A stretch of 18,295 nt of DNA from a virus (taxonomy: Duplodnaviria > Heunggongvirae > Uroviricota > Caudoviricetes): the IMG/VR virus record IMGVR_UViG_2737471838_000005; one strand, given 5' to 3'. Position numbers and translations under genes: made by a program. Position 1 is the first letter of the stretch. Every line of letters starts with the position of its first letter. The notes below the pieces were generated by a model that did not search any database, was not told where the DNA came from, and worked only from the letters and a program-made list of their open reading frames with translations. Below, one piece after another: positions 13,145 through 13,715 of this stretch.

Positions 13145-13715
13145 GCCATCAGCCTTTTCTTTAAAGACATATTATCTTTGTATCATTTCTGATAGTTAAC
13201 ATTACAAGATATAAGTAATGGACGCACTCCCAATTAGTCTATTTAAATCGCCACGAGTTTAACTGACAACCCATGATCAATTATGAATTGCAACTATTTC
13301 TGTAGTCACTTTTGTGGGGACAGTCCACAAAACTGCCAACTTCCGCTTCTTGCTCTTAGCGGACATTAGCATAGGCTATTTACCATAACGCCTCATTACG
13401 CGCACCGCCCAGACTGACTCAGCGCGTTTCTGGCATATCCCCGGTAAAACAAGTAACAAACCACCCGAAAATGAACACCAGAAACGCGACTTAAGAATCT
13501 ACCCTATGAATGGATATGCACTCAACCGAATCGATCTTGGTTTCAATCTTTTTTATCGGGATCAGGCTTCTTTTTAGGTAACTTCGGGGGCTTAACTTGC
13601 TGATGACTTTGCGTTCGGCGCGTAAGCCAGGGATCCGGCGTTAATTGTTAACTGGTTAACGTCACCTGGAGGCACCAGGCACTGCATCACAAAATTCATT
13701 GTTGAGGACGCGATA

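Follow-up and report, generated by a model that had tools for sequence, protein, structure and literature searches.

A gap upstream of dicB in the Qin prophage of Escherichia coli ZYB62 is probably a deletion scar that retains part of an STnc100-like RNA domain

The window analysed here is an 18,295-nucleotide stretch of viral DNA (Caudoviricetes; IMG/VR record IMGVR_UViG_2737471838_000005), and the subject of this work is the 565-bp gap at 13150-13715 between the genes flxA and dicB, in which closely spaced GTTAAC palindromes lie. The gap is very probably a composite scar of prophage decay and not a regulatory leader, and the palindromes are very probably the leftover of an RNA hairpin and not repressor sites. 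An earlier note, made from the letters alone, had compared the gap with the pL/oL region of lambda, remarked that no cI/cro-like gene was present, and offered two readings of the palindromes, as operators for a repressor encoded elsewhere or as a vestige. The word vestige is a fair one for what is left and was right in spirit. The puzzling 'promoter region without a repressor' would be ordinary prophage decay, with dicB an orphan toxin gene deprived of its repressor, its promoter and its partner small RNA (sRNA).

The chromosome of E. coli ZYB62, a bovine strain from China, matches the region from 13100 to 13760 at 100% identity; in about 1,136 further complete genomes, K-12 among them, the match stops after the first 535 bases. 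From this identity the window is assigned to the Qin cryptic prophage of ZYB62. The annotated order in ZYB62 is tfaQ ... cspI, rzpQ, rrrQ, essD, cspB, cspF, ydfT (Q), ydfU, rem, hokD, relE, relB, ydfV, flxA, a truncated 'hypothetical protein', dicB, ydfD, a 2.5-kb exonuclease gene, excisionase and integrase. The window therefore holds dicB with its flanking synteny (flxA ... dicB-ydfD-exonuclease), and DicB has the same accession, WP_000854559.1, in ZYB62 and K-12. The operon after the gap (dicB, ydfD, exonuclease, xis, int) is of the lambda pL type, as the earlier note had proposed, and its 'first small ORF' (open reading frame) is dicB; the annotation of the identical ZYB62 stretch likewise shows no cI/cro-type gene. 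A pL/oL-type immunity region was rightly expected between flxA and dicB, in exactly the place where K-12 and phage PhiR42_1 carry dicC/dicA and the DicA-repressed dicBp. The gap itself consists of four joined pieces: the flxA terminator, non-coding Qin DNA, the 3' end of a decayed ISNCY element with a truncated ydfW on the minus strand, and the last 81 nt of the spacer between dicF and dicB. These pieces and their neighbours are as follows.

12774 to 13106, plus strand: flxA coding sequence, left neighbour of the gap, from the ORF list and annotated in ZYB62 and K-12.
13121 to 13143, plus strand: flxA intrinsic-terminator-like hairpin GUGGCCC-UCAUC-GGGCCAC followed by UUUU (fold -17.3 kcal/mol, z -3.2).
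13350 to 13634, minus strand: 3' end of a decayed ISNCY-family insertion sequence (IS), with an inverted-repeat-like end near 13350-13372, a non-coding tail and a truncated transposase C-terminus, placed by homologous copies.
13543 to 13634, minus strand: ydfW remnant, the C-terminal ~30 codons, the N-terminal 19 codons having been lost by deletion, from PGAP and comparison with K-12.
13633 to 13636, no strand: deletion joint GGGAT/CCGG, where homology to the K-12 Qin locus (L002) jumps from L002 9535 to L002 11796, with the break at 13634/13635.
13637 to 13663, plus strand: helix P4, stem GGCGUUAAUU/GGUUAACGUC (13637-13646 with 13654-13663) and loop GUUAACU (13647-13653), from the minimum-free-energy fold, the Rfam STnc100 alignment and covariation.
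13665 to 13679, plus strand: helix P5, CCUGG-AGGCA-CCAGG, the most conserved motif of the family, from the fold and a 53-sequence alignment.
13680 to 13700, plus strand: orphan 3' strand of the closing helix P1 (CACUGCAUCACAAAAUUCAUU), its 5' partner deleted, from comparison with the K-12 fold.
13704 to 13904, plus strand: dicB Shine-Dalgarno sequence GAGGA (13704-13708) and dicB coding sequence (13716-13904, 62 aa), annotated as WP_000854559.1.

No plus-strand ORF of at least 40 aa lies between flxA and the 62-aa ORF at 13716-13904, and none of notable size lies in the gap. The statement of the earlier note that the gap has no convincing coding sequence holds for the plus strand, with the caveat that 13543-13634 on the minus strand are the last ~30 codons of the pseudogene ydfW.

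The joint was located by BLAST against L002. Window 4102-13634 corresponds to L002 1-9535 and window 13633-14951 to L002 11796-13114, so that 2,262 bp of the K-12 sequence are absent, with a 2-nt AT overlap at the joint and flanks 99.6-99.9% identical to K-12. The absent stretch holds the 5' end of ydfW, ydfX, dicC, dicA, dicBp with its operators, ydfA, ydfB and ydfC, and also DicF (L002 11653-11704) together with roughly 90 nt from the start of the dicF-dicB spacer; an Rfam scan did not find DicF in the window. The direction of change is that of a deletion, with an ORF cut short at one flank and an RNA domain at the other, and the repressor genes are absent from the window because they were deleted with the ydfX-dicF interval. 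According to Ragunathan et al. (bioRxiv 10.1101/2023.04.14.536235), dicA is the analogue of cI and dicC that of cro, the DicA-repressed dicBp upstream of ydfA is the analogue of pL, and the operators are placed in the dicA-dicC and dicA-dicBp intergenic regions. An intact prophage of the Qin type would have the order flxA, ISNCY, replication genes, the cII/cro/cI genes (ydfX, dicC, dicA), dicBp with the DicA operators, ydfA-B-C, dicF, a structured spacer of ~170 nt, and dicB. Through the deletion, the inside of the IS transposase gene (ydfW) would have come to lie 81 nt upstream of dicB, with loss of the repressor, operators, pL-like promoter and dicF, and dicB-ydfD-exo-xis-int would have been left without a promoter of their own. 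These five genes have no recognisable promoter and are presumably reached only by read-through of the flxA terminator, which the consensus scan did not list because its run is of four U only; given that run, termination may be partial. Since DicB and DicF are toxic when derepressed, the joint loss of dicA, dicBp and dicF is the expected survivable deletion.

The position of the gap between the late/replication side and a kil-exo-xis-int operon is that of oL/pL in lambda with its cI. The difference is that the true analogue, dicBp with its TGTTAG-N6-CTAACA sites, is deleted and the RNA of an intra-operon spacer remains. Compared with the dicBF operon and dicA/dicC locus of K-12, the prophage, gene order and DicB accession are the same. 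The window differs in lacking ydfX, dicC, dicA, dicBp with its operators, ydfA/B/C and dicF, in keeping rem without its target, and in having intact exonuclease, xis and int genes.

The native place of the GTTAAC triple is the dicF-dicB spacer (L002 11802-11824), and in the window it lies 3 nt right of the joint. The sequence CGTTAATTGTTAACTGGTTAACG is found at 13639-13661, as the earlier note had it, with GTTAAC at 13647-13652 and 13655-13660. In the window fold, the two GTTAA/TTAAC units form the 10-bp stem of P4 and the middle GTTAAC its loop, and one unpaired A separates P4 from P5. To collect relatives, only the second hairpin (CACCNGGAGGCACCNGGCAC) was used as a search pattern; 120 viral contigs were pulled, and the 36 nt upstream were hence unselected. 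Sequences upstream of the pattern vary widely, yet they nearly always contain a stem of 7-11 bp flush with it. Without alignment, an ungapped stem of at least 7 bp ending exactly at the anchor is present in 79% of 63 distinct copies versus 3.5% of shuffles, and the signal is lost when the tested interval is shifted by 5 or 8 nt. Both hairpins are seen in about 60 of 66 minimum-free-energy folds. The 63 copies have 38 different 3' arms, and the loop UUGUUAACUGG is kept with wholly different stems (GGCGUUAA/UUAACGUC, GACUGUAA/UUGCAGUC and GAUACCAG/CUGGUAUC).

A MAFFT alignment of 53 sequences gives a consistent picture. Among its cells 74% pair, versus 39-43% with the partner slid; both-side changes number 362 cells versus 107-206, and the covariation score is 0.36 versus 0.09-0.16. 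Double changes occur at 8 of the 10 P4 pairs, so that pairing and not sequence is conserved, while P2 is 98.5% paired with C-G/G-C flips and P5 is paired in all 53 sequences, with G-C replaced by U-A in 10. The P5 motif occurs across Enterobacterales. At three P4 positions the commonest pair is G-U or U-G, which pairs only in plus-strand RNA. Arms that change with pairing kept, together with strand-specific G-U pairs, indicate an RNA helix and not a protein-binding DNA site. The palindromes, whose conservation in homologous prophages had been set beforehand as a test, are conserved, but as structure. On this comparative evidence they are the DNA image of an RNA hairpin, P4, which together with the next hairpin, P5, belongs to a five-helix domain related to the sRNAs STnc100 and PasD. 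In the window P4-P5 would be a non-functional remnant, transcribed at most by flxA read-through.

The complete domain is seen in K-12, where the spacer (L002 11700-11885) folds into five helices at -67.7 kcal/mol (z -5.1). The closing helix P1, of 21 bp (L002 11712-11732 with 11843-11863), encloses P2-P5. P1 has 21-22 bp in nearly all DicF-linked copies (15 bp in one), including a compensated variant (AGCGAAUU.../...AAUUCGCU), and a variant of unrelated sequence also has a P1 of 21-22 bp. The order of elements P1, GGUGAAU, P2, P3, P4, P5 is whole in K-12; the window keeps P4, P5 and the 3' strand of P1. In a permissive Rfam scan, window 13629-13679 matched only positions 91-140 of STnc100 (RF02076), at 22.9 bits and E 0.014, and the whole K-12 spacer matched the full 206-position model at 34.4 bits. 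The 3' core of STnc100 (a variable helix, one unpaired A and CCNGG-AGGCA-CCNGG) is present at 13637-13679, and the anchor-bearing phage copies that the P5 motif alone brought up reach 70-161 bits with the STnc100 model. Like the related PasD, STnc100 is an abundant prophage sRNA without known function (bioRxiv 10.64898/2026.05.13.724894; PMC12370729; PMC9029176), and expression of PasD/STnc100 is reported for other strains only. The dicF-dicB version resembles them in its lambdoid-prophage habitat and in its core, where GGUGAAU, a small GC hairpin, a variable helix and CACCNGGAGGCACCNGGCAC follow one another within a terminal closing helix. It differs in having no promoter of its own, whereas many canonical copies have TTGAC-N17-TAAATT ~7 nt before P1; in lying inside an operon, directly after the DicF terminator; and in its closing helix of 21-22 bp versus 4-10 bp. 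The window, moreover, keeps the 3' third only.

RNase III processing helices are known from polycistronic transcripts of phages, such as those of the lambda N leader and sib and the R sites of T7. The K-12 spacer is similar in that a perfect helix of roughly two turns encloses a structured insert, with a functional unit of the same transcript on either side. It differs in that the helix cannot form in the window and that, in K-12, the reported end lies on one strand only. According to the passage on DicF in Balasubramanian et al. (PMC5069750), which cites Faubladier 1990, RNase III processes the full-length mRNA into a 72-nt DicF. Counted from the start of DicF at L002 11653, 72 nt end at ~11724, in the middle of the 5' strand of P1 (11712-11732), so that the RNase III-dependent 3' end published there falls in the K-12 helix. 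A continuous helix of ~20 bp or more, as an RNase III site would have, is present in K-12 (21 bp); in the window its 5' strand is deleted. RNase III would cut the 21-bp P1 and give the 3' end of the 72-nt DicF. With a second, staggered cut in the opposite strand, at ~11851 (13688 in window numbering), a domain of ~125 nt would be set free and the dicB mRNA would keep a leader of ~27 nt before the AUG. The arrangement suggests that the dicF-dicB spacer is an STnc100-like RNA of ~125 nt excised by RNase III from the operon transcript. Two transcriptome-wide studies of RNase III mention dicF in passing only. If correct, this untranslated stretch of a classic locus, which appears to be a divergent member of STnc100/PasD bracketed by a likely RNase III helix, would offer a tractable K-12 model for the family.

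It is highly improbable that a repressor encoded elsewhere uses the GTTAAC repeats as its DNA operators. Palindromic hexamers this close together are unusual (two GTTAAC within 12 bp are found in 1% of dinucleotide shuffles of the window, which contains 10 GTTAAC versus 4.3 expected), and TGTTAAC resembles the TGTTAG half-site of the immunity-region palindromes of K-12. The geometry, however, is unlike that of the 18-bp TGTTAG-N6-CTAACA, of which no site lies at 13639-13661. K-12 has four such sites (0-3 mismatches) in the dicA-dicC and dicA-dicBp intergenic regions, all within the deleted interval; the consensus was derived in this analysis, the literature confirming only which intergenic regions hold operators. 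The window has 7 matches versus 7.2 expected, all with 3 mismatches, and the comparison with immunity-region operators that the earlier note had proposed finds no correspondence at the triple. In intact prophages the triple lies inside the operon, between dicF and dicB and ~1.1 kb downstream of dicBp, and its arms covary rather than stay conserved. A consensus scan for sigma-70-like promoters predicted none on the plus strand from 12500 to 14200, and hence none overlapping the triple. The same scan bears on a second alternative, that the retained 81 nt are a working cis-acting leader of dicB, either as an internal promoter or as an RNA structure that stabilises the mRNA or sets its translation. 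P4-P5 are predicted still to fold when truncated, the same truncated 5' boundary recurs in many genomes, and in the window fold 13695-13704 of the orphan P1 strand pairs with 13711-13720, which may cover the dicB AUG. This pairing is nevertheless weak and AU-rich and has no support from covariation, because the dicB-linked copies are all nearly identical, and Ragunathan et al. (bioRxiv 10.1101/2023.04.14.536235) found no promoter of the operon besides dicBp. A working leader is thus considered unlikely. There is very little chance that the palindromes are accidental or the joint an assembly artefact. Of 5,426 complete E. coli genomes, a single one covers the full length of a 121-nt probe spanning the joint, and the joint 30-mer has no exact match in metagenome contigs, so that the joint was found in neither set beyond its source; it also creates a BamHI site, GGATCC, at 13631-13636 from GGGAT and CCGG. 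Against an artefact stand the hairpin conserved with covariation in more than 60 distinct copies, the analogous joints in many independent assemblies, and the two flanks, both native; neither parent has the BamHI site, which is a coincidence and not a trace of engineering.

Several points weigh against a deletion scar with an RNA remnant as set out above. An allele in which a complete IS abuts the same right-hand site exists, so the ancestor may not be K-12-like and the deleted interval may differ in size and history. The DicF-linked copies score 32-39 bits and the window 22.9, below the STnc100 gathering threshold of 47 bits. The MAFFT alignment is based on sequence, and P4 pairs in 67% of its cells, a figure probably lowered by register shifts. 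The RNase III cut in P1 is placed by coordinate arithmetic from a description of the 72-nt species that is second-hand in the passage cited, and RNase III is described only at the 5' side of a 190-nt species (bioRxiv 10.1101/2023.04.14.536235). A promoter upstream of dicB was proposed by Cam et al. 1988, as cited in the same preprint, which would favour a working leader. That the remnant is silent in ZYB62, finally, we infer.

The right-hand end point of the deletion is not confined to ZYB62. The top matches to the joint probe include other fusions, in which homology to the window starts at the same bases, (T)ATCCGRCG, and the left sides differ. At least seven alleles, apparently from independent deletions or fusions with different left partners, share one right-hand end point, (G)TA/TCCGRCG, just 5' of the GTTAAC hairpin, with microhomology of 1-7 nt. 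Comparison with undisrupted versions of the left partners shows, allele by allele, how each partner would have run on.

Window (ZYB62), end point 13633-13636: left partner ydfW inside the ISNCY transposase gene, microhomology AT.
L252 (strain 2020CK-00188), 1519-1521: left partner the terminus of a complete ISNCY copy, microhomology TA.
L248, 2509: left partner ydfU, microhomology GTATCCG.
L249, 2510: left partner an ATP-binding replication gene (P-like ATPase), with kilR downstream, microhomology GTA.
L250, 2509: left partner a site ~290 nt upstream of the element, microhomology G.
L082, minus strand: left partner replication gene O, microhomology TA.
L251, 1501: left partner a YdaT/cII-like gene, microhomology TA.

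These alleles raise the possibility, at the level of DNA and compatible with the RNA helix, that the palindrome marks a site-specific hotspot of breakage or recombination of which the window joint is one product. The case for it is the seven left partners at the same few bases; moreover, when 4,752 records were sampled evenly at 60 rows, three of the four truncated best matches began here, the fourth had its start at another site, and no further start fell within P1-P3. The examples inspected first, however, came from ranked BLAST, which favours them; no enzyme or mechanism was identified for the common end point; the DNA hairpin has only 6 perfect pairs; and the window allele can be derived from the complete-IS allele through two imperfect 20-nt direct repeats and is perhaps not independent. 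Such a hotspot is a tentative proposal, as is the suggestion that it repeatedly removed immunity regions of the Qin and Rac types, with the hairpin and dicB or kilR always kept. If true, the recurrent end point hints at a directed process that disarms toxic cryptic prophages. Two further candidates were rejected. A dif/XerCD-like site at the end point (TGTATC centre) matches by eye at 15 of 28 positions, which is too weak, and a Chi-like sequence in P5 (CCTGGTGC, bottom strand) has two mismatches and the wrong position. Neither the hotspot nor an RNase III-excised STnc100-like spacer RNA is described in the literature consulted.

The left partner of the window joint belongs to an IS. In PhiR42_1 (ECOR13) the same DNA runs into a 265-aa transposase fragment and an N-terminal HTH fragment, which match the ISNCY transposase NF033594 at E 1e-67 and 1e-34; plasmid p21AR0133A has a 90%-identical IS copy (common stretch 13352-13531), and strain 2020CK-00188 has a complete copy matching over 1.5 kb. 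Because these copies extend the same DNA, ydfW ('intK') is identified by homology as the C-terminus of a DDE transposase. PGAP lists it in ZYB62 as 'hypothetical protein, incomplete, missing N-terminus', and the corresponding ydfW of K-12 has 49 aa. The ends of the element are placed only roughly (~13350 on the left, L003 7866 on the right, L003 being the PhiR42_1 locus), and no target duplication was found. Inside the transposase gene, window 13614-13634 (TTCGGCGCGTAAGCCAGGGAT) repeats the IS terminus TTCGGCACGTAAGAGGCTAT (L003 7847-7866; TTCGGCRCGTAAG...AT) imperfectly and in direct orientation, and could be a pseudo-end or a slippage partner. The ancestor of the ZYB62 allele may thus be the 2020CK-00188 allele and not a K-12-like one, the step between the two being a deletion of 1.34 kb, either repeat-mediated or at a pseudo-end. 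IS-associated decay is shared with other cryptic prophages, as the left end point of the window lies within the ISNCY element and the Qin prophage of K-12 has a different 4.8-kb deletion starting in the same IS. In classic IS-adjacent deletions, as in 2020CK-00188, the whole IS is kept at the joint, whereas the window joint lies inside the transposase gene. Qin of K-12 is thus also a deletion derivative, lacking 4.8 kb of PhiR42_1 (L002 9628/9627 versus L003 6621/11421), with ydfW/ydfX as another joint; the missing DNA comprises most of the ISNCY element, a methyltransferase gene, LygF, replication gene O and part of cII.

Two other inverted repeats lie in the gap.

13423 to 13488, minus strand: strong hairpin with 11-bp perfect arms (13423-13433/13478-13488) and a 44-nt spacer (fold -30.1 kcal/mol, z -4.7).
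13310 to 13332, no strand: 8-bp inverted repeat TTTTGTGG/CCACAAAA in Qin non-coding DNA (fold z -1.7 to -1.9 on either strand, no U-run).

The larger one, which the earlier note had missed, is the stronger feature, with an inverted repeat of 11 bp in 0.6% of shuffles. It lies in the non-coding tail of the IS, 55 nt beyond the stop codon of the truncated transposase gene; it lacks a U-run, and most of it is preserved in the IS copy of p21AR0133A. The 8-bp repeat is present at 13310-13317 and 13325-13332, as reported, at chance level, since a repeat of this kind turns up at least once in 12% of shuffles of the 566-bp region. Plasmid matches to 13145-13545 are either pieces of flxA that IS26 has captured or further copies of the ISNCY element, and are uninformative on function.

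Other readings of the element as RNA were considered and rejected. A put-type antiterminator RNA as in HK022, an idea prompted by two hairpins with a single base between them, does not fit: the put stems are ~35 nt each, with bulges and a triple helix, just after pL/pR (PMC9378689); here the hairpins are of 27 and 15 nt and lie deep in an operon. A tRNA-like or C4-type antisense RNA, an idea drawn from arrays adjacent to tRNA genes and from a ...CACCA end, is disfavoured in that the permissive Rfam scan matched the element to STnc100 only, the tRNA matches are at separate neighbouring genes, and the helix sizes do not fit a tRNA. Tandem arrays of 2-4 STnc100 copies are found beside phage tRNA genes (L030 342-1038, L048 1702-2340, L028 3121-3798 and L124, the ban operon of phage P7, 2501-2616), and some other STnc100 copies have a strong sigma-70-like promoter of their own. 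The 254-kb record of Aeromonas phage AP1 (MT713136.1) contains at 249964-250144 a 98%-identical E. coli dicF-dicB spacer, which looks like contamination or a chimeric assembly.

Elsewhere in the window, rem, the gene of the DicA antirepressor, is kept at 11020-11271 (minus strand) despite the deletion of its target dicA. An intact 2.5-kb exonuclease gene (RecE-like), xis and a full integrase gene occupy 14952-17135; the K-12 equivalent is missing, with an IS2 transposase remnant in its place. Rfam matches at gathering level comprise the sRNA IS009 inside or beside tfaQ (35-233, minus strand) and the cspA-type thermoregulator 5' untranslated regions of cspI and cspB (4800-5185 and 7663-8086, minus strand).

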